Origin: Candidatus Woesearchaeota archaeon
GTDB lineage: Archaea > Nanobdellota > Nanobdellia > Woesearchaeales > JAZDKJ01
DNA: 64,000 nt
Assembly (NCBI GenBank): GCA_043803105.1
Contig: JAZDKJ010000008.1
Location: 96,001 to 160,000, forward strand
Direction of reading: 5' to 3'
The notes beneath the pieces were generated by a model that ran no database searches, was not told where the DNA came from, and saw only the letters and a list, made by a program, of their open reading frames with translations. Of the stretch, positions 17,496 through 50,644 are shown one piece after another. The translations under genes and the position numbers were made by a program. Every line of letters begins with the position of its first letter. Within the stretch, counting starts at the first letter, position 1.

Positions 17496-17701
17496 GCCCC
17501 GTTGGTGTAGCCCGGCGCAATGGAACTTCAGTTAGAGGTTCCATGCGGGAACAATCATTCGGCCCTCTCGAGGCCGAGACTCGGGTTCAAACAGCCTTTT
17601 TCCATAGGAAAAAGCCTGGGGAAAGGCTTTTTTGCCTTCGGCAAAAAAGTGTGTTTCAAAGGTTTCAAATGTGGGAGGGTTAGAAAATCCCGAACGGGGC
17701 A
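17496..17701 (+). tRNA. tRNA-Glu(CTC) with D-loop intron (~17517-17551) and T-loop intron (~17592-17687)
   Basis: Spliced sequence GCCCCGTTGGTGTAGCCCGGCCAATCATTCGGCCCTCTCGAGGCCGAGACTCGGGTTCAAATCCCGAACGGGGCA forms a cloverleaf. Confidence 0.92.
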
Positions 17702-34899: not shown

Positions 34900-36069
34900 T
34901 CACGGCTTAGAAAATTCTTGGTCAATTACGCAGCATTCGTTCTCAAGGGTTGCAAGGAGCTGTTTCCTTAAATTCGCGGCAAGAGCTTCAGGTGGAATAA
35001 CACCAGGCTCCTTAACCTTGGGAATAATCCCTGCAAAGGCTGCTGCTGCCAAGCCAGTCGGATATGATATATAGGTTGCACCTGGAAATTTTTTTGATAT
35101 AAACTTCAGGTCTGGGAACTTTGCCACAACCTTGACTTTAATTGGTTTTCCTGAATCTTTTCCAACTATTTCCATAACGCATAGGTAGACACCGTTCTCA
35201 ACAAGGCCTTTTTTCATAAGTGAAAGCATTTCTTTTGGGGTTGGAACAGGTGGTATAATCTTTGAAAAGAAGTCCAGAGGGACAATCTTCTTGCCATTGA
35301 CAGACACAGGCTTTTCGCTGAACAAACCGCACCTGAAGAAGGTGTTGGCAGTGTCTATGTCAGTTCCTGATGCCTTAAAGCTACAGTGCTTAAGCTTAAT
35401 GTACCTGGGAATGGTGCAGACCTCATCACCATAAAGAAGAAAGGCAAACCTGCTGCAGTAAGGTGCAGGATAACAATATTCTTCAGGATCATCAAAGGTT
35501 TTTTTGTACAAATATTTTCCGTTGCCGTAAATAGGCGGATTGTCAGTGAGGGTGTCAAAGGCTGCTTCCTTGGACCAGGCAGAAACCAGCACTGCTGCCT
35601 GCTGGTCTTCAAAAGAGTAGAATTTTACAGAATCCACAGAATCAAGCCTGTCAGCCACGTCTTTGACGAGAAGGTTTGTTATCCCTGGCGCAATACCTGT
35701 GCAAAACAGCCCAACCAGACCTTGCTTTCTAAAGGCCTTATCGTACTTCAACTGTTCAGGTGGGTTATGCATCAAGGCTAAATCCTGATAGTTGGCATTT
35801 GCCTTCAAAGCAGCCTGCATAAGAGAATCGTTAAAGAAATTACAGCATGCATTGATAATCAGGTCATAACCCTTGGCAAGCTTGGCAATCTGATTAGTGT
35901 TGGCAGCGTCTGCAGTCACAAGATGAATCTTATTGTGCGGGGCTATAAACTGCCTGTCCCTCTTAATATTGTTCGAGGCAATCTTAATCTCTGAAACATG
36001 TGAGTCATGCGCAAGAAGCTTTGACATGACAGAGGAGACACCACCCATGCCGACGATAAATATCTTCAT
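34900..36069 (-). CDS. saccharopine dehydrogenase-family oxidoreductase (carboxy(nor)spermidine dehydrogenase-like)
   Basis: VGMGGV Rossmann, ANYQDLA, TGIAPGITN. Confidence 0.8.
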   Translation of the reverse strand: MKIFIVGMGGVSSVMSKLLAHDSHVSEIKIASNNIKRDRQFIAPHNKIHLVTADAANTNQIAKLAKGYDLIINACCNFFNDSLMQAALKANANYQDLALMHNPPEQLKYDKAFRKQGLVGLFCTGIAPGITNLLVKDVADRLDSVDSVKFYSFEDQQAAVLVSAWSKEAAFDTLTDNPPIYGNGKYLYKKTFDDPEEYCYPAPYCSRFAFLLYGDEVCTIPRYIKLKHCSFKASGTDIDTANTFFRCGLFSEKPVSVNGKKIVPLDFFSKIIPPVPTPKEMLSLMKKGLVENGVYLCVMEIVGKDSGKPIKVKVVAKFPDLKFISKKFPGATYISYPTGLAAAAFAGIIPKVKEPGVIPPEALAANLRKQLLATLENECCVIDQEFSKP

Positions 36070-36157
36070 CTGTAAGATGGCTCAAAAATCCTACTATAAA
36101 TAGGTTTCGTCGGTGAGAATCGCAAAATATAAGAGGAGGAACCAGTTAGGTCTTGTC

Positions 36158-36601
36158 ATGAAGCAAAAAAACTACTATATCATAATGGCTTCGATAGCGC
36201 TAATTGCAGTCATAGTTTCAATCACAGCAGAAATAGAGCACGTTACACAGCAAAGTTCTCTGCAAGGCTTCTGCAACGCTTTTGGGAAGAGCAGCTGCCA
36301 GACAGTCCAAGACAGTGTCTACGGAAAAATCTTTGGGATGGACACAGCGATTTATGGAATAGTTGGCTTTAGTTTGCTCTTGATTGTGTCAGCATTGTTC
36401 TATTTTACAAAGAAGAAGCTTTTCCAAAACCTAACGATTATAGGCACTTTGATCGGAGGATTAATGGCACTTCGCTTCCTGTATCTGCAGGCATTTGTGC
36501 TGCACCTTTTCTGCATCTTCTGCGTTGTTGTTGACACGCTCGGAGTCATACTGCTAGGAATAGGAATATTCCTAGCAGCAAAGACTATGAAAAAACGCTG
36601 A
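36158..36601 (+). CDS. vitamin K epoxide reductase (VKOR) family
   Basis: C...SCQTVQDSVYGKIFG; CIFC. Confidence 0.88.
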   Translation: MKQKNYYIIMASIALIAVIVSITAEIEHVTQQSSLQGFCNAFGKSSCQTVQDSVYGKIFGMDTAIYGIVGFSLLLIVSALFYFTKKKLFQNLTIIGTLIGGLMALRFLYLQAFVLHLFCIFCVVVDTLGVILLGIGIFLAAKTMKKR

Positions 36602-36657
36602 TGCAATCTCTCAAACAGAAACAAATATAAATCAAATACTAACTTGTTCTCGGTAAT

Positions 36658-36913
36658 GCCCCGTTGGTGTAGTCCGGTGACGGTCTTGTCCGTCAACACC
36701 GAAGGCGGCTCCTAGTGACTTCGTCACCGGAGCCCCCTGTGTTATTGGCGGCACGTCAGGACAATCAATCATCCGGCACTTTCGATGCCGGGACTCGGGT
36801 TCAAAGAGCTTTTTTCCATGGGAAAAAACCTCGGAAAAGGCTTTTTGGCTTCGCCAAAAAGTTTGTTTCAAGGAGTTCAATTGTGGAAAAACTAGAAAAT
36901 CCCGAACGGGGCA
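36658..36913 (+). tRNA. tRNA-Glu(TTC) with D-loop intron (~36679-36765) and T-loop intron (~36806-36899)
   Basis: Spliced sequence GCCCCGTTGGTGTAGTCCGGTCAATCATCCGGCACTTTCGATGCCGGGACTCGGGTTCAAATCCCGAACGGGGCA. Confidence 0.92.
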
Positions 36914-37012
36914 TTTTTTCTCCATTGGTGTCTACAAATAAATTATCGTTTGAATCAAAAAATGACAAGAAGGTCCGCACATGGTTTTCAATGGTTCACT
37001 ACAAAATTCAAA

Positions 37013-37993
37013 CTATTTTTTCAAGAACTCATGAGACTTAATTCCCTTAAATTTGGACAGGTAGCCACGAAAGTCACCAGGTATTTTTGTTGAGTCATCA
37101 TAAGTGTACATTTTGACCTTTAACGCTTCAAAAGAGCATTCTGCTATTCGTGCACCATCAAGATTCAAAACGTCTCTTATATGTGAATCGGTTAAATTGA
37201 GCCTATGGATTCTGGCGTCACCCAAGTCGAGGTGTTTGGTTCTTAGCCCTTTCATATTCAATTCTACACATGTAATATCCGAAAAATCTGCATTTTCCTT
37301 TATTACCATGTTCTGCATGTAGGCAGTCCCACCTATTTTCATGAGCTGGCAAAAGGCACTGCCAATTCTGGCGCCAGTCATGTATGCGTTACCTTTGATA
37401 CGAATACCGTATAGGCAAAGTTCATTTTCAACCTTGGCTTTCGAGGCAATAAGATCTCCTTTTAATTTGCAATCTGACAAGTCAAGCCCATAGGGTGAAT
37501 AGGACGGTAATTCATAATCATCAAGTAGTTTGTGCCTTGGATTTACAATATTAATCTTGGGAAGTTTCGGGTTGTTCCTCCTGAAGCGCTGCAACTTGGG
37601 AACATAAGTATCTATTTTCACATGCATTTGATCAAAATTAATCACACTGAAATCATATTCTTCTGTCCCAATACTTCTCTCATATTTTAGGTCATACCTC
37701 TGCTTGCCTTCAACCAGAAGGGCTTCTGATGAGATAAGCTTACCATCCAGGTCGAAGGAATCCCAAACTGTAATGTGATGCCCAGCCTTAACCTGGTCCC
37801 CCTGGATAATATGACCGCTTGTTTCTAGAAGCGAATCATCGAAAATGCGTGCCTCAATAGACTCTATAGCTTCTGGACGCAGGTTTTGCGGGCTGCCAAT
37901 TATGTCAAAGAGTCTTTTATCCCTATGCGAAAAGGAGCGCCGCTTAAATATTGATTTGAAGCCTTCCTTTGACAATTTGTTGTACATAGCCAA
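37013..37993 (-). CDS. hypothetical protein with C-terminal pentapeptide/beta-helix-like repeats
   Basis: Periodic repeats LCLYGIRIKG, AYMTGARIGS, AYMQNMVIKE, LDLGDARIHR, LNLDGARIAE. Confidence 0.7.
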   Translation of the reverse strand: MAMYNKLSKEGFKSIFKRRSFSHRDKRLFDIIGSPQNLRPEAIESIEARIFDDSLLETSGHIIQGDQVKAGHHITVWDSFDLDGKLISSEALLVEGKQRYDLKYERSIGTEEYDFSVINFDQMHVKIDTYVPKLQRFRRNNPKLPKINIVNPRHKLLDDYELPSYSPYGLDLSDCKLKGDLIASKAKVENELCLYGIRIKGNAYMTGARIGSAFCQLMKIGGTAYMQNMVIKENADFSDITCVELNMKGLRTKHLDLGDARIHRLNLTDSHIRDVLNLDGARIAECSFEALKVKMYTYDDSTKIPGDFRGYLSKFKGIKSHEFLKK

Positions 37994-38045
37994 AGTGAAT
38001 ACATAAAGAACATAAAAAGGTTTCCGGTATGAAGCAAACTACTCT

Positions 38046-38093
38046 AATGCCCTAAATCTTCACAAAAAGGTCTTATGACCGAACGGGGCACTT
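38046..38093 (+). repeat. cassette boundary site 1
   Basis: AATGCCCTAAATCTTCACAAAAAGGTCTTATGACCGAACGGGGCACTT. Confidence 0.85.
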
Positions 38094-38656
38094 CACATCT
38101 CTTCCAGAATGTTCTTTTTGTGAAATGCAACCTTATTTGCCTTGAGGATCTCTTCAAAACTCAGTGAATTCTGAATAGGAATTTTTGCTGCTCCACTGCT
38201 GATACGCTCACCACCTATTTCCTTTAGGACTCCGTTAGATCCCCTCCCTGCGAGGATGTAGTTGAACCGGATCTTTTCGGAGTGTGTCAGGCCGTTGAGG
38301 CTCCACGAGAACAGGGTGTAGGATTTGAACCCCAGATTCTCGCAAAAGTGCTTTCCGCTCAGCACACTGATCCCTTCGAGGAACAATCCTGTTCTTGCGA
38401 AGAAACCTGGTGAAAAAAGCTCTTTCAGCAATATCTGTTTTACGTCTAGATTTTGATGGAGAATTTTTTTCAGACCTATTTTGATATTTTGGGCCTTGTC
38501 GAGCCTCTCGCGGAGCGACCCTTCAAGGAATATGACCAACACATCGATGTCCCCCGGAGACAGCTTCCCCTTTACCGATGACCCATACAGGACAATGTCA
38601 AATACGCCTGTGGGACCTATTTCAGACTCTAAGTGCTTTCTTAAGATGTTCAGCAT
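38093..38656 (-). CDS. MNT nucleotidyltransferase (antitoxin-like) with C-terminal extension
   Basis: VLYGSSVKG...DIDVLVI. Confidence 0.85.
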   Translation of the reverse strand: MLNILRKHLESEIGPTGVFDIVLYGSSVKGKLSPGDIDVLVIFLEGSLRERLDKAQNIKIGLKKILHQNLDVKQILLKELFSPGFFARTGLFLEGISVLSGKHFCENLGFKSYTLFSWSLNGLTHSEKIRFNYILAGRGSNGVLKEIGGERISSGAAKIPIQNSLSFEEILKANKVAFHKKNILEEM

Positions 38657-38960
38657 CTTCCTTCAGTAGTTCTGCAGATTCCTTGTCCATCCTTTTTGTA
38701 TAGCTTTCTTGATAGTATGGGAAATCGCGGTCAGCAATCCTGTACATCTCAGGATATTTTTCTTCCAGGACTCTGAAACGGTTGGAGTGCGAGGAGGGGG
38801 CTTCTCCCTCTTTTCTCAGAAGGAAGAGGTCGCAGAGTGCCGCGATAGCTTTGAAAAAGAGTGTTGTCGCTGAGTTGTATTTTTGCTTCTTGAAGGCATC
38901 AAGCCCGAATTCGTAATATTCCCTGAAATTCTCAATGAGAATTTTCTCCTTTTCCTCCAT
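38622..38960 (-). CDS. HEPN-domain protein
   Basis: KYNSATTLFFKAIAALC...SSHSNRF; paired with MNT. Confidence 0.75.
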   Translation of the reverse strand: MEEKEKILIENFREYYEFGLDAFKKQKYNSATTLFFKAIAALCDLFLLRKEGEAPSSHSNRFRVLEEKYPEMYRIADRDFPYYQESYTKRMDKESAELLKEDAEHLKKALRV

Positions 38961-38961
38961 T

Positions 38962-39071
38962 TTGTATAATACAACAGTAGACAACTATTTAAGCCTTTTG
39001 GTTGTACTATACAATTTGTTGTATTATACAATTAATAAGTGCAAGAATCGATTTTATGTTGTATCATATAA
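38962..39071. promoter_or_regulatory. four palindromic operator-like boxes TTGTA-N3-TA(C/T)AA
   Basis: 38962-38974, 39002-39014, 39019-39031 and 39059-39071, directly upstream of HEPN-MNT. Confidence 0.65.
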
Positions 39072-39085
39072 CATCTGTCCACATC

Positions 39086-39130
39086 AATGTGTGAATTTTC
39101 ACAAAAAGACGTAATACCTAACTGGGCAAT
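39086..39130 (+). repeat. cassette boundary site 2 (degenerate)
   Basis: AATGTGTGAATTTTCACAAAAAGACGTAATACCTAACTGGGCAAT. Confidence 0.65.
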
Positions 39131-39313
39131 TTTTTTGTCTCTTAAAAGTAGTTATAAAATGAAAGATTTTTATATTAGAGCGTCTTATGAGATAACTAGA
39201 ACCACTAGTGTGGAAATAAGGCATATAAACTGGAAAAAGAGTTCAGGTAGCTTTTGACAAAAATCCATTTATATATAAATGTTGTAAATAATAGGCGATA
39301 GGAAGGACAAAGA

Positions 39314-40714
39314 ATGAACACACAATATATTAATCAACATACAAACAGTAACCAAAAAATTGATAACAAAGAGGAATTTGAAATTTTGCTGATTGATCCA
39401 GGAATTCAACTCAAAACGAGATCTAATGTAAAATATGTTAATAGGGGACTACTAAGTATAGCTACTTTTTTGAGAAGCAAGGGATTTAGAACAAATTATT
39501 TTTCACTTGATTATTATATTAACGCGGGAATGAATGAGGAGCAGGTTTTTTCTGAAATAGAAAAAATCATTAAGGAAAAAGATGTAAAAATATCGGCTAT
39601 AAGCAATCTCTTTATAGCTGAAACTGACAATGTTCTAAGAATCGCCAAATTTATTAAAGAAAGATTTCCAGAGAATATCACTGTAATCGGCGGATATAAT
39701 CCTACTATTACAAATCAGGAATTAATAAAAAGAGAGGAAATAGATTTTATTATAAGGGGCGAGGGAGAATGGGCGTTGCTTGACCTAGTATCTGCAATAA
39801 AGAATGGAGTGTCAACCAAAGACATTGCCGGATTAGTAACAAAGGAGCATATTGGGGCCGAAAGAAAACACGGCGACCTTAGAGAGCTTCCACCTATTGA
39901 TTACTCAATTTTACCGAGAGCATACTTACTAAGCGATAATCCACCGCGCGTAAATCTTGAAATAAGTCGCGGATGTTATCATAACTGTACCTTTTGCAGC
40001 GTGAGTCAATTTTGGCACGAGACGATACGCTCTCACAACCCGGACAAGTTAATTCATGAATTTGAGGAACTCAAAAAAATAGGTTATAAGGGGTCAATAA
40101 GTCTTGAAGAGTCTATGGTAAATCTTAAATCAGAGAAGATAAAAGAGTTTCTCAGTAATGCGAAGAGATTCAAAGACGAATTTGAATTTGATTTTATTGC
40201 TTCGAGATATGACTTTGTTGATGACGAAAGCATAAGTCTTTTGGATGAGATTGGTTTTCAAAACTTGATGCTGGGTCTTGAATCAGCCTCTAAGAAAGTT
40301 TTAGACAAAATAAACAAACATATAGACTTAGAAGCGTTCATAGAGACTTGCAAGATCGTTAAACAACATAAAATAAGATTGAATGTCTATATGATAGTGG
40401 GACTCCCAGGTGAAACAAAAGAAACGAACAAAGAAACCTACGAGTTTCTGACTAAGATGATGAATGAAGAACTAATAGACACTGTTTTCCCATGCTATTT
40501 TCAACCTTACCATGGCACCAGAGCAAGGGAAGATATAAAAGAGTTTGGAGGAAAAATCTTGGCTGATGAAAAAGACTATTTCAAGTGGTTAATGCGTGAT
40601 GAACCATTGGTAGAGTATGAAGGATTAAATAAGAAAGAGTTAAAGGAAATGATGAACAAGATGTTGTATCTTAACAAAGAAGTGAAAAATCCAGTTATTG
40701 ATAAATTAATGTAG
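39314..40714 (+). CDS. B12-binding radical SAM protein (AT-rich)
   Basis: GLLSIA, VIGGYNPT, GEGE, SRGCYHNCTFC, GLES, GLPGET. Confidence 0.9.
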   Translation: MNTQYINQHTNSNQKIDNKEEFEILLIDPGIQLKTRSNVKYVNRGLLSIATFLRSKGFRTNYFSLDYYINAGMNEEQVFSEIEKIIKEKDVKISAISNLFIAETDNVLRIAKFIKERFPENITVIGGYNPTITNQELIKREEIDFIIRGEGEWALLDLVSAIKNGVSTKDIAGLVTKEHIGAERKHGDLRELPPIDYSILPRAYLLSDNPPRVNLEISRGCYHNCTFCSVSQFWHETIRSHNPDKLIHEFEELKKIGYKGSISLEESMVNLKSEKIKEFLSNAKRFKDEFEFDFIASRYDFVDDESISLLDEIGFQNLMLGLESASKKVLDKINKHIDLEAFIETCKIVKQHKIRLNVYMIVGLPGETKETNKETYEFLTKMMNEELIDTVFPCYFQPYHGTRAREDIKEFGGKILADEKDYFKWLMRDEPLVEYEGLNKKELKEMMNKMLYLNKEVKNPVIDKLM

Positions 40715-40726
40715 GAAAACAATCTA

Positions 40727-40832
40727 ATGCTCAAAATTCAAAAACTACAATCGAGTTATGGAAATCCTCTACGGGATTGATATTGAAATAGGAACTATCA
40801 AAGCGATTGTTAACCCCAATGGGAGCGGTAAT
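40727..40832 (+). pseudogene. frameshifted 5' fragment of an ABC transporter ATPase
   Basis: MLKIQKLQSSYG, then in another frame EILYGIDIEIGTIKAIVNPNGSG (Walker A-like). Confidence 0.6.
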
Positions 40833-40923
40833 TCCACAATTCTTAGGAGTGGTGCATGAAAGAAAGAGTCCTTGTAGAACCTTAAAAAGATTTCAATTCC
40901 CAACTTGTTTTTATGGTTACAAT

Positions 40924-40970
40924 AATGCCCCAATTATTCACAAAAAGGTATTATGACCGAACGGGGCACT
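40924..40970 (+). repeat. cassette boundary site 3
   Basis: AATGCCCCAATTATTCACAAAAAGGTATTATGACCGAACGGGGCACT. Confidence 0.85.
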
Positions 40971-41027
40971 TATTTTTCTCGAAACGATTAGCAATGTTTA
41001 TATAGAAATAAATGTTATGGTGTCATA

Positions 41028-41237
41028 ATGACCACGAAGTATACAATAATAATTGAGAAGGATGAGGATGGCTGGCTAGTGTCTGAGGTAGTGGGTTTGC
41101 CGGGTTGCCATACTCAGGCTAAAACCATTGAGGAGCTTTTAAAGAGAACAAAGGAAGCAATAAAGGCATATCTGGAAGATGAAGACACACCTGAGATTTC
41201 TGGAGAGTTTGTAGGAGTGCAGCAAATAGAGGTGTAG
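41028..41237 (+). CDS. hicB: HicB-family antitoxin
   Basis: YTIIIEKDEDG...LPGCHTQAKTIEE...KEAI. Confidence 0.9.
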   Translation: MTTKYTIIIEKDEDGWLVSEVVGLPGCHTQAKTIEELLKRTKEAIKAYLEDEDTPEISGEFVGVQQIEV

Positions 41238-41240
41238 TTC

Positions 41241-41474
41241 GTGAACAAACTGCCTAAGCTGACAGGCAAAGAATTGGGCAAAATTATTGAACGGTTTGGT
41301 TTTACCTACAGCCACACGACTGGAAGCCATATGGTTTACAAGCATCTTGATGGAAGGAAAACAACAATACCCCATCATTCAGGCGAAGAGATTGGCCCTG
41401 GGCTTTTGAACAAGATTATAAAGAGAGATTTGCAGATAACAAGAGAGAAATTTATTTCTAAGGTGGATGAATAA
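41241..41474 (+). CDS. hicA: HicA-family toxin
   Basis: GF...GSHMVYKH.DGRKTTIPHH. Confidence 0.9.
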   Translation: MNKLPKLTGKELGKIIERFGFTYSHTTGSHMVYKHLDGRKTTIPHHSGEEIGPGLLNKIIKRDLQITREKFISKVDE

Positions 41475-41493
41475 AAATCCCGAACGGGGCACT
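41474..41493 (+). repeat. terminal attR-like copy of tRNA-Glu 3' end
   Basis: AAAATCCCGAACGGGGCA identical to 36896-36913, including intron-terminal AAAA. Confidence 0.85.
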
Positions 41494-41624
41494 TTCTTTT
41501 CTCGTAATATTTGAACCATAATTTTGACGTGCATTAACCTTTTGCTCAAGTGATATTCTATAATAGTTATCTTGCAGAAGCGAAATTGTTATCAATAAGA
41601 AGTAACTACCTACACCACGCTAAA

Positions 41625-43178
41625 ATGGCAAAGGATATCGCAAACAACCTTGGCGCTGCGTTGACACAGCTGGGCATCGAAGATAAGTTTCTTTCCAATG
41701 GCGAGCTAACCAGCTTTCCGCTCGTTGACAGGGGGAGAATTGCGAACGGCATCATAGAAGAGAAACTAGGATCTGGAAAATGGACTACAGTAGTCCACCT
41801 CTTATTTGGCAGCAACGCACATGCCCATGCACTCTATGAAGGAGACTACGAGCAGCTGAAAAAAGACATTTTGCAGTCTGCGCTAAGCAGCAGCAGAGAA
41901 TATTATGACATGGACAAGGTGGCCAAGGACCTGGCAGACAGCAAAGAGTTTGACCTGTTGTTTAAGATTGCCTGTAGTATCCCAATCAATTATGATGAAT
42001 TCAACAAACTTACTTACCACTTTCCAAAAGGATTTTTTGATGGCCAAAACTTGCAAATGTTGCACAATGTGGCAGGGAAAAAAGCATTAGAAGAAAATAA
42101 GCCTGACTCTGCTGCTTATCACTTCACAGAAAGCGGCGACAAAGAGAATCTGAAGGCTGCTTTTGAAGCGATGCTGACGCATTCAGCTCAAAGACATACG
42201 GACAGTCTGGAAAAGATTGCACTTTTTTTCCCAAAAGAACAAGCAGAAATGCTAAAGAGAATTATCCTCTCGACTTGCTCAGAAAAAAGTGGTACGGTAA
42301 GTGCCCTCAAACTCTATTGGAAGTATGTGGGGACAAATTTAACCCTTCCTGAACATGATGTAAACAAGCTTTATTCCAATGCTGCTTCTGAAGCAGTTAG
42401 ATTTGACGTGACCAGACTGCCCTTTTTGAAGGATGCTAGACTATGCTTGCTGTGGGCAAAAAAGCATGCCAAATCAGAACCACAGGCATCATACAGAATA
42501 TTCAATGCTCTGGGTTATAAAGGCAAAGAAGTTCAAACTGCTGTTCTTTCAGGCCTTGAAATTGAAAGGTACCAGCATGAAGACCAGGTTCTCACACCGC
42601 AAGACATTCAAAAGGAACATTTAGAATCAGCGTATAAACTTGCTTCATTCAAAGTTAAGGTTGTGATTGCAAAACATCAAAAGAATAACAGAAGACTGCA
42701 AAAGTTGAGCAAGCAGGCAGAACAAAAAGAGGACTTGAGGGAAGCCTATTGGTTGTGGACTGCTGGCAATGGCAACTTTGAAAGCAAATACCTTACCAAC
42801 ATTAGGAAACGGCTCATCGAAAAGGAGATAAAAAAAGGTTCTTGTTGGATGTCCTTTATAGAAAAGAATGACAGGCCTGGCAAGCTGCAGGCTTATGATG
42901 CTCTCATGCAGGAACGCCAACAGCAGAGATATCGGTTTGTTGAAGTTGCTTACGAACTGGCAAGAAGTTTGTCAGACCAAGAAAGAATGCAAAGAGCACG
43001 CGAGCAAATGGTAAATTTGAACGCTCAGCGAGCCCTGGAAGCATTTGTTAAGGATAAAAAGGAGCCAGACAAAACTGGAATTGAATATCTTGTAAATGTC
43101 ATGGCACAACGGTTTAAGGTGGAAGCGCCAACCCTTGCAAGAATAGTAGAAAAATATGCTTCAGGCTTGTCAATTTGA
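41625..43178 (+). CDS. large alpha-helical hypothetical protein
   Basis: Long ORF with TPR-like helical character. Confidence 0.65.
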   Translation: MAKDIANNLGAALTQLGIEDKFLSNGELTSFPLVDRGRIANGIIEEKLGSGKWTTVVHLLFGSNAHAHALYEGDYEQLKKDILQSALSSSREYYDMDKVAKDLADSKEFDLLFKIACSIPINYDEFNKLTYHFPKGFFDGQNLQMLHNVAGKKALEENKPDSAAYHFTESGDKENLKAAFEAMLTHSAQRHTDSLEKIALFFPKEQAEMLKRIILSTCSEKSGTVSALKLYWKYVGTNLTLPEHDVNKLYSNAASEAVRFDVTRLPFLKDARLCLLWAKKHAKSEPQASYRIFNALGYKGKEVQTAVLSGLEIERYQHEDQVLTPQDIQKEHLESAYKLASFKVKVVIAKHQKNNRRLQKLSKQAEQKEDLREAYWLWTAGNGNFESKYLTNIRKRLIEKEIKKGSCWMSFIEKNDRPGKLQAYDALMQERQQQRYRFVEVAYELARSLSDQERMQRAREQMVNLNAQRALEAFVKDKKEPDKTGIEYLVNVMAQRFKVEAPTLARIVEKYASGLSI

Positions 43179-43187
43179 ATTCTTGAC

Positions 43188-45311
43188 TTAGGCGGTGGGG
43201 TTTTCCTGCAGCACCTTAATTACATCCTGCTCCTTCGAGATAGGGTAATATTGCAATGGATTGATAGACCTTGGGAAGAGGGTGCCTACACCGAGCGGCT
43301 TGATGTCTTTATACATCTCGGTAAATCGCTCTTGTATTACTTTGGGCTCAAGGCTTGTTTTTTCAGTCCAATAATCGATTCTTTCCAACAGAAAATAATT
43401 CCTGGAAGCAACAAAGAAAAACTCCGCAACAATCTCCCCCTTGATCACCTTCTCGAGACTTGTGCTAAGGGTCTGCCATTTTTCTTGACTGTAGCTTTTC
43501 CCAAGTGCACTCTGCCAGAGGTTCCTGATATATTTCTTCGCATGGAATGCACCCAGGCCAATTGACTCGCCTGCCACATGGAGGAATCCATCCCGCTGAG
43601 TGCAGGCGAACCTGCAACCTTCATTGGAGCTTGGATCCTGAGCATAGACATCAGGCTGGTTTAGTGCCTGGTAGAAAGCAGACAAAGCCTCGCGTTTGGT
43701 CACATGATGGTGGTCCAATTTTTTAATCAGGACTACCCTGGCATCACCTTTGGAGAGCACCCTGACCAGCGAACCTTTGCATTTATCAGCAGCCTTAACA
43801 AGATCCTCTGTCTGGCAGTCAAGCTCGCGTGCTATCTGTTGCGGGGCGAAAGGGGAATAACCCTTAATCATTTCAAAAATAAAGTCAACAGACTGCTTGG
43901 AAAAAGTTTTTGGCGAGGTTGTTTGAGCCCAATTGCCAATAAGCGGCTCAATGCCAGATGCGTTAGCGGGAATACCATCTCGGAGAAATCTGGTGATGAT
44001 ATCTTCATAGAAATAGTCTCCGTTCATTGCATACTGGCTCAGGGATTGATATATACCTATAAGGGCATCCATCTCCATGTCCTTTGGCATCAGCATGGCA
44101 ATCTGACTCTTGCCATCAGTGTATTTGGCAGAGTAGACTGTAATACGCTCGTCAAAGCATTCCTTCATGACATTAATCACTGAAGTCAAATCACCTGGGC
44201 CTGTGCCTTTGCCAAGTTTCTCACAAAGGATTTTGATTGGAAGGGCCTTTTTGACCTGAAGCTCATAGTCTATTTTCTCCAAACCCCCAGTTATTTTATC
44301 GTTTGGGTCAAGGGAGCATAAGGCTCGGATCATTGTCTCTGCAAATTTTTCGGAAACTGGATAGGTTGTGTTGAACCTGGCGATTGCTGCTTGCAGGCTT
44401 GTAGGATACTCATACTCAAACTCTTGAATGGGCGGAGCATTTTTCACAATCTCAGACAATTTAGGAGCAGGCTTAGGAACCTCAACAGACTTTTGTGGCG
44501 CTTCCAATGCATTCAACCTGTCTGACAAATCTGGAACCGGGCCATGCTCTGGTTCTGAGTCTTTGGCCAAGGGAGTATCCTGCGTCTTTTCCAGAAAAGG
44601 TTTGTTTATCTTAGCGATTCTGTTTTGCATCTCACGCAGATATATACCTGCAAGATCTTCAATTTTCATATCTTGGGGAATGAGCATAGCCACTCGCCTG
44701 GGTCCTGTAGAGCCCGGCGCAGCATACACAGTTATCCGTTTGTCTTCGCAATGCTTCATAATATTAATCAAAGAAGCAGGATCGCTTTCGCCTTTACTGT
44801 CGGCAATGTACCTGGATAGCAATGTGATGGGCAAAGGCCTCTTAGCCTGCAGTTCATAATCTATTTTTTCAAGACCTTCTGCTATGCAGCCATCAAGGTC
44901 AAGGCGGCAGACTGCACGAATCATGGTCTCGGCAAATCTTTCATCAACACCGTATAGGATATTGAAACGGTCAATTGCATCTTGGACACCTACAGGGTAA
45001 ATATATGCCAATTCCTCCGTAGGCTGCAAATCGATGTTCAAATGGTTGGCCACTTCTCGGATTGTTTCACGCTCGGAATGCGCAGGATGTTCTTTGTCCC
45101 CTCCCAAAGGAGGAGGATTCAAAATCTGTTCTAGAAGAGATTTCTTTTCAATGACCCTGCGGAGGAGCATTATTCTGCGCCGGAGATATGATTTCTCATC
45201 AGGTGATTCGGCTGAGGCAGAGAGCTTGTCAAGCCTTCTTGGTATGAAGGTGAGATAGTGCTGTGTCTCCTTAAAGACTGAATCTATCTGTTCTTTGAAT
45301 TCGGGTCTCAT
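43188..45311 (-). CDS. hypothetical protein with an internally duplicated ~125-aa domain
   Basis: FAETMIRA.C.LD....GLEKIDYELQ...ERITVY-like block occurs twice. Confidence 0.75.
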   Translation of the reverse strand: MRPEFKEQIDSVFKETQHYLTFIPRRLDKLSASAESPDEKSYLRRRIMLLRRVIEKKSLLEQILNPPPLGGDKEHPAHSERETIREVANHLNIDLQPTEELAYIYPVGVQDAIDRFNILYGVDERFAETMIRAVCRLDLDGCIAEGLEKIDYELQAKRPLPITLLSRYIADSKGESDPASLINIMKHCEDKRITVYAAPGSTGPRRVAMLIPQDMKIEDLAGIYLREMQNRIAKINKPFLEKTQDTPLAKDSEPEHGPVPDLSDRLNALEAPQKSVEVPKPAPKLSEIVKNAPPIQEFEYEYPTSLQAAIARFNTTYPVSEKFAETMIRALCSLDPNDKITGGLEKIDYELQVKKALPIKILCEKLGKGTGPGDLTSVINVMKECFDERITVYSAKYTDGKSQIAMLMPKDMEMDALIGIYQSLSQYAMNGDYFYEDIITRFLRDGIPANASGIEPLIGNWAQTTSPKTFSKQSVDFIFEMIKGYSPFAPQQIARELDCQTEDLVKAADKCKGSLVRVLSKGDARVVLIKKLDHHHVTKREALSAFYQALNQPDVYAQDPSSNEGCRFACTQRDGFLHVAGESIGLGAFHAKKYIRNLWQSALGKSYSQEKWQTLSTSLEKVIKGEIVAEFFFVASRNYFLLERIDYWTEKTSLEPKVIQERFTEMYKDIKPLGVGTLFPRSINPLQYYPISKEQDVIKVLQENPTA

Positions 45312-45443
45312 AATCCAGCCCCCAAGAAGACTTGAGGATTTTGCACCTCTCAACACATGTTGTGCTGGGCTGATTTAAAAAGTTTTCGAGGATTAATCAT
45401 AGAGCTTGCTTTCTCCTGCTTGTCATTGGCAGTATTCCGGGAA

Positions 45444-49024: not shown

Positions 49025-50422
49025 TTATCCCCTTGTTATTTTTAGCAGTGCCCAAAAGCCCACTATTGTTTTTTTCAGGTCATAGATTGATTTTATCCTC
49101 GATATCCTCTCAAGTGCGTATTTCGGCCTGTAGTAGAATTTTTTGTACGCCCATTTCATGTATTTCTCTAATTCGTCGTTTGATAGGTGTTCTGTTTCTA
49201 TTACTGTTGCCTGTGACTGGTCTAGCGCAGACCATTCCCTTGTAAGTATCAGCTTGCGCCTATTGAAGTCTTCGAATATTTTTGTGCCCGGGTACGGTGT
49301 TAGTATGTTGAAGCTCACAAGTGTTGGGTTAACCTTTTTTGCAAATTCCACTGTCCTCCTTATTGTCTCTGCAGATTCCATTGGTGCTCCGAACATGAAA
49401 TGCGCTACAGTCTCTATGTTATATTTGTGTGCTAGCTTGAATGCGTTTTCTATTTGTTCTAGCTTTATTCCTTTTTTGTAGTAATCAAGTATTTCCTGGC
49501 AGCCTGATTCTACTCCGAATAAAATAGTGCGACAGCCAGCTTTTTTCATCAGCCAAATTACTTCATCATCGATTGTGTCTACCCTTGAGCTGCACACCCA
49601 CTTCAGGTTGAGTTTTTCCCCTGTTATGCGTTTCATAAGTTCAATGGTTCTTTTGCGGTTTAATGCAAATGTTTCGTCGTTGAAAATAACCTCGTTGATG
49701 CCCACTGACTTTATAAATTTCAGCTCTTCTACTATCCTTTTTGGGGACTTGTAGCGTACTTTTTTTCCGTTCATTAATCCAGCGTTGCAGAACGTGCATG
49801 GGTAGGGGCATCCCCTGCTTGACTCCACCACTGTGAATAGTCTGTTTTTTACAAATGGTGCCCTGTAAACTGGTTTTAGTAAGTCATGTGTTGGTAATGG
49901 TAGCTTGTCCAGATCTTCCAGGAGTTTTTCCTTGCCGTAGTATGATATTTCTTTGCCTTTTCTCTTCCACACGCCTTTTATTCTGGTTTCATTTGCATAG
50001 AGTTTTATGAGTGCTGTTTCTGGCTCTCCTTCAATGATGTAGTCAACATTCTGGTATTTCTTCAGTATATTTTCTGCTTCTGCGCTTGCAAAAGAGCCTA
50101 TGAACACAACCTTGAAGTCGTATACTTTTTTAATTTCATCTAGTGTCTCTATCTCTTTTTCTAGCAGCGTTGGCAATGGCTCTGAGATTGCCAGGTCTGG
50201 TCTTATTTCTATGAATCTTTTTTTGAACTCTTTCTCTTTTATGCCCTCGTTATCCCCGTCCAGGAACCAGGTGTTTGAGTAGGTCCTTGCAACTCCAGCT
50301 ATCGTGATTAGCTTGACAGGGGGCCATTTCTCACCGCCTTTGGATGAGCCGCCGCACCTTCCTATTCTTGCAAAGTTCTTGTCCGAAGGAATAGTGTAAA
50401 CTAGAGTTTTCTTGAAGACCAT
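49025..50422 (-). CDS. B12-binding radical SAM protein (HpnJ-like)
   Basis: GEPE, SSRGCPYPCTFC, FGVESG, LTPYPGT. Confidence 0.9.
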   Translation of the reverse strand: MVFKKTLVYTIPSDKNFARIGRCGGSSKGGEKWPPVKLITIAGVARTYSNTWFLDGDNEGIKEKEFKKRFIEIRPDLAISEPLPTLLEKEIETLDEIKKVYDFKVVFIGSFASAEAENILKKYQNVDYIIEGEPETALIKLYANETRIKGVWKRKGKEISYYGKEKLLEDLDKLPLPTHDLLKPVYRAPFVKNRLFTVVESSRGCPYPCTFCNAGLMNGKKVRYKSPKRIVEELKFIKSVGINEVIFNDETFALNRKRTIELMKRITGEKLNLKWVCSSRVDTIDDEVIWLMKKAGCRTILFGVESGCQEILDYYKKGIKLEQIENAFKLAHKYNIETVAHFMFGAPMESAETIRRTVEFAKKVNPTLVSFNILTPYPGTKIFEDFNRRKLILTREWSALDQSQATVIETEHLSNDELEKYMKWAYKKFYYRPKYALERISRIKSIYDLKKTIVGFWALLKITRG

Positions 50423-50644
50423 CGCATACCCCTTGAGTATTCTGCTTGTGTGGCTAGTTCTTAAACATTTCTAAAACCCCGGAAAAATTTCAAAGGACAC
50501 ACCATATTCGATAATTTGGGATCATCCTTGTGGGGTTCAACACAATCGACTAATTATCCTCAAAAACCTAAAACATTGTACGGTGCCACATCAGTAAGTT
50601 TTTATAGTTGAAAACAAGGACCCTGAATCTGAGGTGGTATAAGA

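Follow-up and report, generated by a model that had tools for sequence, protein, structure and literature searches.

A row of four unrelated gene modules stands directly behind the tRNA-Glu(TTC) gene of a Candidatus Woesearchaeota archaeon, each module ending in a copy of the tRNA's own 3′-end, which raises the question of how such different genes came to be stacked at a single tRNA gene. The row, at positions 36896-41493, lies in a window of 64,000 nt (positions 96,001 to 160,000 of contig JAZDKJ010000008.1, assembly GCA_043803105.1; C8:96001-160000 in our labelling, in which the genome is G000), taken from a genome of 1.56 Mb that is 96.5% complete. A preliminary description, made from the letters of the window, had seen here an integron-like array of cassettes separated by tRNA-derived hairpin sites. 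We consider it probable that the region grew by tandem accretion, four small integrative modules, none of them autonomous, having stacked up at the 3′ exon of tRNA-Glu(TTC). The modules are best read as cis-mobilizable-like cassettes, each of whose junctions joins an arm from the element to a core from the tRNA, and the array, so read, is a fresh and clear case of a known route of island growth and not a new integron-like machine.

The window holds five copies of the 12-mer CCGAACGGGGCA, which forms the tRNA core; 0.09 would be expected, and none of 100 shuffles reached five. These five copies are also the whole-genome count, every one on the + strand of the window's contig, and they are restricted to two tRNA-Glu ends (17690, CTC; 36902, TTC) and three junctions of the array (38079, 40957, and 41480). 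The tRNA-Glu(TTC) gene (36658-36913, +), called by ARAGORN after in-silico removal of its introns, provides the attL side, the attachment core being its last 12 to 18 nt. At the opposite end, the terminal repeat s4 (41474-41491, +) equals 36896-36913 over exactly 18 nt, where the identity stops, so that the last copy is indeed the plain duplication of the tRNA 3′ exon first reported, without the conserved arm. The internal copies are likewise, as had been claimed, a distinct site of about 45 bp. Site s1 (38046-38090, +) consists of a conserved 33-nt element arm followed by the 12-nt tRNA core, and homology to the same-genus genome G001 starts there; s3 (40924-40968, +) is intact, with the arm and a perfect core; and s2 (39086-39128, +) is a decayed copy with two mismatches in the 12-nt core. 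The stretches around s1 and s3 (38040-38093 and 40918-40971, repeat family D1) are 89% identical over 54 nt, and the degenerate copy (~39086-39128) belongs to families D3 and D4. A site model that uses sequence only, built from nine aligned copies of G000 and G001, scores s2 at E=1.4e-6, s2 itself being among the nine. Run on G000, the model returned three matches, all of them array copies, and a 21-nt word of the arm was found at two places in that genome (s1 and s3) with up to three mismatches allowed; the site has not spread through the genome. The motif scan proposed at the outset thus recovered copies in the relatives G001 and G043, while in G000 only the three array copies pass the model.

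Between the repeats stand, in order, a pentapeptide-like open reading frame (ORF), a gene for an MNT-type nucleotidyltransferase with a small partner, a gene for a B12-binding radical S-adenosylmethionine (SAM) enzyme, and a HicBA pair, protein-coding modules of 0.5 to 1.8 kb of which the first two lie on the − strand and the last two on the + strand. The repeat and ORF analysis agrees with the original observation of four unrelated modules in mixed orientation behind the tRNA, each closed by a copy of its 3′-end. Every site copy is co-oriented with the tRNA and cargo genes occupy both strands; that the sites keep the tRNA orientation whatever the gene direction speaks for a DNA site, oriented by the tRNA, and against a transcript signal. 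After the core, T-rich tracts follow at the tRNA, s2, s3, and s4, and none follows at s1, where the 3′-end of the MNT gene adjoins the core, a pattern that is expected if an element must supply the terminator of the tRNA. The sites read GACCG where the T-stem of the tRNA reads TCCCG, from which it would follow that the crossover falls within the 12-nt identity. As the junction copies occur in three independent assemblies, they are unlikely to be assembly artefacts; nine aligned copies from G000 and G001 share the conserved 33-nt arm, which is present in G043 as well. A resemblance of the tRNA upstream flank to the left flank of s3 (family D10, 73% over 26 nt) was set aside as chance, judged by eye against the flanks of the other sites.

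The comparison with G001, one same-genus genome that is 84% complete in ~240 contigs, places the differences between the two arrays at the sites. G001 holds six good site copies, which bound modules. Its contig C149 carries a tRNA-Glu 3′-end, an unrelated 705-aa ORF, and then homologues of the MNT pair with a site on either side, the second of these sites being followed by the contig end. Contig C1 starts with the end of an unrelated ORF and a site, followed by a homologue of the radical SAM gene, another site, and an AAA_14/DUF4143 gene that occupies the position of the window's HicBA. A further copy adjoins a trypsin-like protease gene (C206), and a decayed copy lies beside an MNT-HEPN-WYL cluster (C209). 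Homology between the genomes comes in two blocks, 38047-39040 (77%) and 39374-40736 (75%), the first of which starts at what is given as the first base of s1; the encoded proteins are 74.6% (MNT), 85.7% (MNT partner), and 70.6% (radical SAM) identical. Aligned three ways, s2 has a left flank that corresponds to G001 C149 and a right flank that corresponds to G001 C1, indicating that G001 has extra DNA exactly at s2. The two middle modules are therefore common to both genomes, the first, the last, and one internal position differ, and all breakpoints are at sites. The shared modules have diverged to a degree in line with that of the few core-gene matches found in the flanks (69-75%), and because modules that diverged like core genes sit in an array that differs at both ends and inside, site events appear to have continued after the species split. 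The preliminary description had named a fixed gene order across relatives, or the absence of the 45-bp site elsewhere, as observations that would tell against it; the order differs in G001, where the site recurs with other modules, and the site is found in both G001 and G043. Among the site-bearing contigs of G001 there were no terminal overlaps, no mutual overlaps, and no circular contigs. The ORF of module 1 has no homologue at that position in G001 or G043, and the idea that the first module hides a shared recombinase was rejected, the first ORFs of the three arrays (326, 705, and 318 aa) not being detectably related.

Outside the genus, the single convincing case of the site is G043, which belongs to a different family of the same order. 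Its row consists of a tRNA-Glu(CTC)-like gene, the 318-aa ORF, a site, a P-type ATPase, an ArsR regulator, an MNT pair, and a plain repeat of the tRNA end. The tRNA-like gene has, by eye, a T-loop intron, and after segment removal ARAGORN called Glu(ctc) in 18 of 35 full-length calls. The G043 site is 82% identical to s3 over 56 nt and its core, CCGCTCGGGGCA, matches the genome's own tRNA end; exactly three copies of this core occur in the 2.7 Mb of G043, within 5.4 kb and on one strand. The cargo is unrelated to that of the window. With an arm that is conserved, a core that follows the host tRNA, and cargo that is free to vary, the sequence has the appearance of an attachment site. In G043 the opening 12 nt of the tRNA-Glu gene are also present a second time, some 100 bp upstream of the true 5′-end (G043:C21, L117, ~14093-14082, −), indicating that the 5′-end of that tRNA has been duplicated too.

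Wider surveys returned little else. The site model, run on 149 other genomes of the order, gave 13 weak matches at E<=0.01, and among the 10 inspected only that in G043 looks real. A pattern of the arm, allowing up to one mismatch and run on 399 other order genomes, matched exactly outside the genus in G043, G136, G084, G305, and G182; three of these matches fall within ORFs (788 aa in G136, 745 aa in G084, and 272 aa in G305) and were taken as chance. Among the about 107 one-mismatch matches listed, the 28 whose loci were read have no site flanks. The tallies of arm matches and of recombinases include unpublished genomes (G182, G335, and G370; G315), on which no claim rests. In public genome contigs, a search with 17 specified bases found 48 stretches, one of which, a 3.7-kb contig of a Candidatus Woesearchaeota metagenome-assembled genome, holds two copies; the remaining 47 are single matches, mostly in bacterial records, and by a rough estimate their number is about that expected by chance. 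Metagenome contigs searched with 19 specified bases gave six stretches, none with site flanks and five sharing one unrelated conserved sequence, and viral contigs searched with the core and the end of the arm gave no match.

A recombinase gene stands near the site in G001. On contig C190, a perfect-core site lies ~720 bp upstream of the gene for a 289-aa PF00589 recombinase with a SHOCT-like tail, with a 164-aa ORF in between, and the contig stops short of the element's far end. From this single observation of gene neighbourhood, the 289-aa protein is a reasonable candidate for the recombinase that acts on the site. In the window, a Pfam scan of the six cargo ORFs found no integrase or transfer genes and the contig has no PF00589 match, in keeping with a series of small modules that is anchored at a tRNA, is bounded by a shared site, and carries no recombinase. 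G000 as a whole has four tyrosine recombinases by PF00589 search, none on the window's contig C8: three of 429-451 aa and one of 278 aa that is taken as Xer-like by its size. In that genome, too, the interval C7:30500-32900 shows an intron-bearing tRNA gene, apparent partial copies of its 3′-end (by eye), and then the gene of a 451-aa tyrosine recombinase, and is probably a separate integrase-bearing integrated element. Mobilisation in trans, which had been proposed for the window's array, is plausible given a recombinase gene beside a sister-genome copy of the site and the lack of a close homologue in the window's genome. Relatives of the G001 recombinase (E<=1e-25) occur in 38 of 400 other order genomes, with 29-40% identity among the matches listed, a sporadic spread of the kind typical of mobile elements, and one relative adjoins a tRNA-Glu(ttc). 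At G219:C3:591131-594853 (L168), an intron-less tRNA-Glu(ttc) gene has a recombinase relative on one side and, by eye, an integrase-like ORF on the other. Among viral contigs the G001 protein matched one distant relative, with 32% identity over 78 residues.

We propose that the modules could descend from small integrative circles, each being what is left of one or a naturally occurring derivative that carries cargo only. Such a circle would enter with one attachment site made of the ~33-nt arm, a 12-nt core equal to the tRNA 3′-end, and a T-rich stretch. A tyrosine recombinase supplied in trans would cross the core of the circle with that of the tRNA, and the crossover would rebuild the tRNA, give it a T-tract, and leave arm and core at the distal end of the insert. 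Repeated events would stack modules, and recombination between sites already in the row may add, remove, or swap internal modules, as the s2 comparison suggests. The plain terminal repeats of G000 and G043 might stem from an element with a different, longer tRNA-like site or have a separate history.

Several observations weigh against tandem accretion, or against parts of the scheme just outlined. The inverted ends TGCCC...GGGCA of the site are conserved and are not explained by accretion, and to the right of the core the sites do not share a conserved sequence. Lacking the arm, the repeats that end the rows of G000 and G043 need another site or another history. Modules differ at the far end of the row as well, which a strict model of insertion next to the tRNA does not predict, and s3 is intact whereas its counterpart in G001 is decayed. 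Outside the genus the site was seen in one genome only (1 of 149 by the model and 1 of 399 by the arm pattern). The link to a recombinase comes from one 5-kb contig of one metagenome-assembled genome, no homologue of the 289-aa protein was found in G043, and none that is close was found in G000, where the best match is the 278-aa gene at 25% identity.

The known systems that the array most resembles help to place it. Cis-mobilizable elements (CIMEs) are units bounded by attachment sites and lacking integrase and transfer genes, which accrete in tandem at the sites of integrative and conjugative or integrative and mobilizable elements, as in the Streptococcus ICESt1/ICESt3 family. The window shows what such accretion leaves: an intact tRNA at one end, 3′-end repeats that bound the units, a shared arm, and no integrase or transfer genes. 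Like CIMEs, its units are bounded by sites and stacked at one chromosomal site, and they are presumed to be moved by a related recombinase; unlike CIMEs, they are far smaller (0.5 to 1.8 kb, with one gene or one toxin-antitoxin pair), occur in a DPANN host, use a 14-18-nt 3′ exon as target, and are known here from sequence alone. Archaeal viruses and plasmids with SSV-type or pNOB8-type integrases also integrate in tRNA genes, carrying their own integrase and forming single insertions. Like these, and like the tRNA of Caldiarchaeum that is disrupted by a mobile element (PMC3293823), the window has an archaeal tRNA gene as target and partial tRNA copies left behind; it differs in being a stack of cargo-only units that share a compact 45-bp site. 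An especially close match is found in Dehalococcoides, where tandem islands at ssrA each end in a 20-bp repeat of the gene's 3′-end with a conserved element-derived motif just upstream, where the content is strain specific, and where some units lack an integration module (PMC3146451). There, as in the window, the row lies downstream of a small RNA gene and an arm stands just upstream of each core. The Dehalococcoides islands are unlike the window in using the serine recombinase DsiB, the candidate here being a tyrosine recombinase, and in being many kb long, usually with an integration module, in a bacterial host and at a transfer-messenger RNA gene. What is unusual in the present array is the very small size of the cassettes, the compact 45-bp site that recurs across families with a host-matched core, and the tiny 3′ exon behind a T-loop intron. 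We found no paper on such arrays in Woesearchaeota, although supplements might hold such annotations.

A bolder account would make the 45-bp site and the small SHOCT-tailed tyrosine recombinase a dedicated Woesearchaeota cassette-exchange platform, working on double-stranded DNA at the tiny tRNA-Glu 3′ exon as a functional integron analogue of independent DPANN origin. We hold this to be unlikely; under it, any site in the row, and not the tRNA alone, could gain or lose single-gene cassettes, and the system would spread between families and adapt its core to the tRNA of each host.

We also considered a single event, in which a composite island integrated once through its perfect 18-nt outer repeats, the internal 45-bp sites being inactive fossils of accretion that took place earlier or elsewhere. 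The outer repeats are indeed perfect and longer than the 12-nt internal core, the G043 row has the same layout of an internal arm-type site and a terminal plain repeat, s2 is decayed, and a cognate recombinase was not found in G000. Against this, the cores of s1 and s3 are perfect, the middle modules have only 75-77% DNA identity to those of G001, and the array differs from its counterpart at both ends and inside, so that a one-time insertion seems improbable.

Less credible again is a true integron analogue, in which a dedicated recombinase would use the 45-bp site as a folded, attC-like single strand, with the tRNA 3′-end as its attI, and would put in or take out single cassettes at any of the array's sites. 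The attC sites of integrons are imperfect palindromes that fold as single strands and have conserved R″/R′ core sites (GTTRRRY), and integron cassettes are co-oriented, mostly promoterless, and read from the promoter Pc. Clusters of attC sites lacking integron integrases (CALINs) need no neighbouring IntI. The window does share with integrons one site per small cassette and a cargo rich in toxin-antitoxin genes; moreover, G000 and G001 differ at internal and distal sites and not just beside the tRNA, and the inverted TGCCC/GGGCA ends, which are able to pair, are conserved across families. The hairpins named in the preliminary description were not confirmed: single-strand DNA folds of the sites are weak (-0.9 to -6 kcal/mol, z +1.0 to -1.7), and in nine aligned copies a five-pair stem showed pairing and covariation no better than shuffled columns, 254 of 500 shuffles reaching the observed pairing. 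The inverted core TCACAA-N7-TTATGA is present as described, but its two words are complementary at only five of six positions and at fewer in other copies, and the left end of the site, which had been likened to the 5′ context of the tRNA, can be accounted for just as well as its right end copied in inverted form. The site ends show no GTTRRRY-type core, the window's contig has no recombinase gene, gene orientation is mixed, and the 289-aa recombinase encoded next to the G001 site is no more than a plain PF00589 protein that has a SHOCT-like tail. Archaeal integrons are defined by IntI and attC (PMC9668308). Like the array, integrons and CALINs are series of small one-site cassettes, often without a neighbouring integrase and commonly with toxin-antitoxin cargo; the array is unlike them in lacking IntI, a folded attC, an attI or Pc promoter, and a common orientation, and in being anchored to a tRNA whose core it shares. 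The term integron-like thus fails as a statement of membership, for want of an integron integrase, an attC-type folded site, covariation, and uniform gene orientation, and we regard an integron analogue as highly improbable. In our best reading, the site is a double-stranded junction of the ordinary kind, element arm joined to tRNA core, that integration at a tRNA site left behind.

The least tenable proposal, that small intron-like insertion elements duplicated the tRNA ends and that the 45-bp unit is such an element or a tRNA-derived RNA signal, draws on a genome whose tRNA genes are full of mobile-looking introns and in which pieces of the tRNA-Glu introns recur elsewhere, but we give it almost no credence, the arm being found nowhere else in the genome and absent from the introns, the enclosed units being 0.5 to 1.8 kb of protein-coding cargo, the sites holding the tRNA orientation regardless of gene direction, and a tyrosine recombinase gene standing beside one of them.

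The target of the accreted modules is itself an unusual gene. Two non-canonical introns split tRNA-Glu(TTC), one of ~89 nt in the D region (approximate boundaries ~36676/83 to 36764/71) and one of ~90 nt in the T-loop (approximate boundaries ~36803/6 to 36895/9), immediately behind which lies the 3′ exon of ~14-18 nt. ARAGORN called no tRNA in the unmodified window, and an E-value search of 36000-42000 with Rfam found none either, its single sub-threshold match being miRNA-like and inside the T-loop intron. With two segments removed at varied boundaries, 114 of 2,620 combinations yielded an ARAGORN call of full-length tRNA-Glu(ttc), as did 245 of the 5,446 in another set, and in neither set did the program ever call an identity other than Glu. 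The second tRNA-Glu (CTC; 17496-17701, +) has the same 16-nt 3′-end and homologous introns, 84% identical to those of tRNA-Glu(TTC); no insert lies behind it, so that an apparently equivalent target stands unoccupied. Pieces of the tRNA-Glu(TTC) introns (36676-36771 and 36803-36899) recur at four further places in G000 with 81-94% identity (C6:403710-403772, C6:187267-187308, C6:371782-371813, and C7:30614-30646), and a copy in G001 (C14:10979-11018, 98% over 40 nt) has a 17-nt direct repeat on its flanks. The introns have the appearance of a mobile repeat family.

The gene content of the modules was established by Pfam for the MNT protein, the B12 radical SAM enzyme, and HicAB, which upholds those labels of the preliminary description, whereas HEPN stays a lead and the beta-helix label finds no more than a sub-threshold match. 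Module 1 (36914-38045, −; GC 0.394) holds the 326-aa ORF (37013-37993), pentapeptide-repeat-like by a sub-threshold match to Pentapeptide_3 (E=0.007) and weak Atlas leads. Module 2 comprises the 187-aa MNT-type nucleotidyltransferase (38093-38656, −; PF01909, E=1.3e-5) and, overlapping its gene, the small partner (38622-38984, −), whose start is likely the ATG at residue 9 of the listed ORF. The partner has no match in Pfam, NCBIfam, or PDB, and its sole lead is a similarity of language-model features to HEPN/PaREP1 clusters at 0.92-0.94. Upstream of the pair, four copies of a 15-nt palindromic word (TGTTGTATTATACAA-like; 38960-39071, families D2, I12, and I13) are kept in G001 and probably mark the operator or promoter region of an MNT toxin-antitoxin operon. 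Module 3 encodes the 466-aa B12-binding radical SAM enzyme (39314-40714, +; B12-binding 4e-14, Radical_SAM 5e-24) and is AT-rich, with a GC content of 0.337 against 0.435 for the genome. A second B12/radical-SAM-like ORF of the window (49028-50470, −) is 25% identical to the radical SAM protein of the G001 cassette. Module 4 is the toxin-antitoxin pair of HicB (41028-41237, +; E=1e-7) and HicA (41241-41474, +; E=2.5e-16). Beyond the array follow ORFs of 542 aa (41550-43178, +) and 722 aa (43188-45356, −) with no Pfam match, and the variable region may extend past the last repeat. With the queries used, neither the 542-aa ORF nor VKOR (36113-36601) was found in G001 or G043.

The genomes of DPANN archaea are very small, and little is understood of the ways in which accessory and defence genes reach them. 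The array offers a concrete route, by which cassettes without a recombinase, each a single gene or a toxin-antitoxin pair, would be shuttled into a tRNA gene, with a site family that is found in more than one Woesearchaeota family. The array is relevant, too, to the view that introns shield tRNA genes from integrating elements, as here the target persists in a 3′ exon of 14-18 nt behind a T-loop intron. Together, the 45-bp site and the candidate 289-aa recombinase make up a small recombination system that is open to test.

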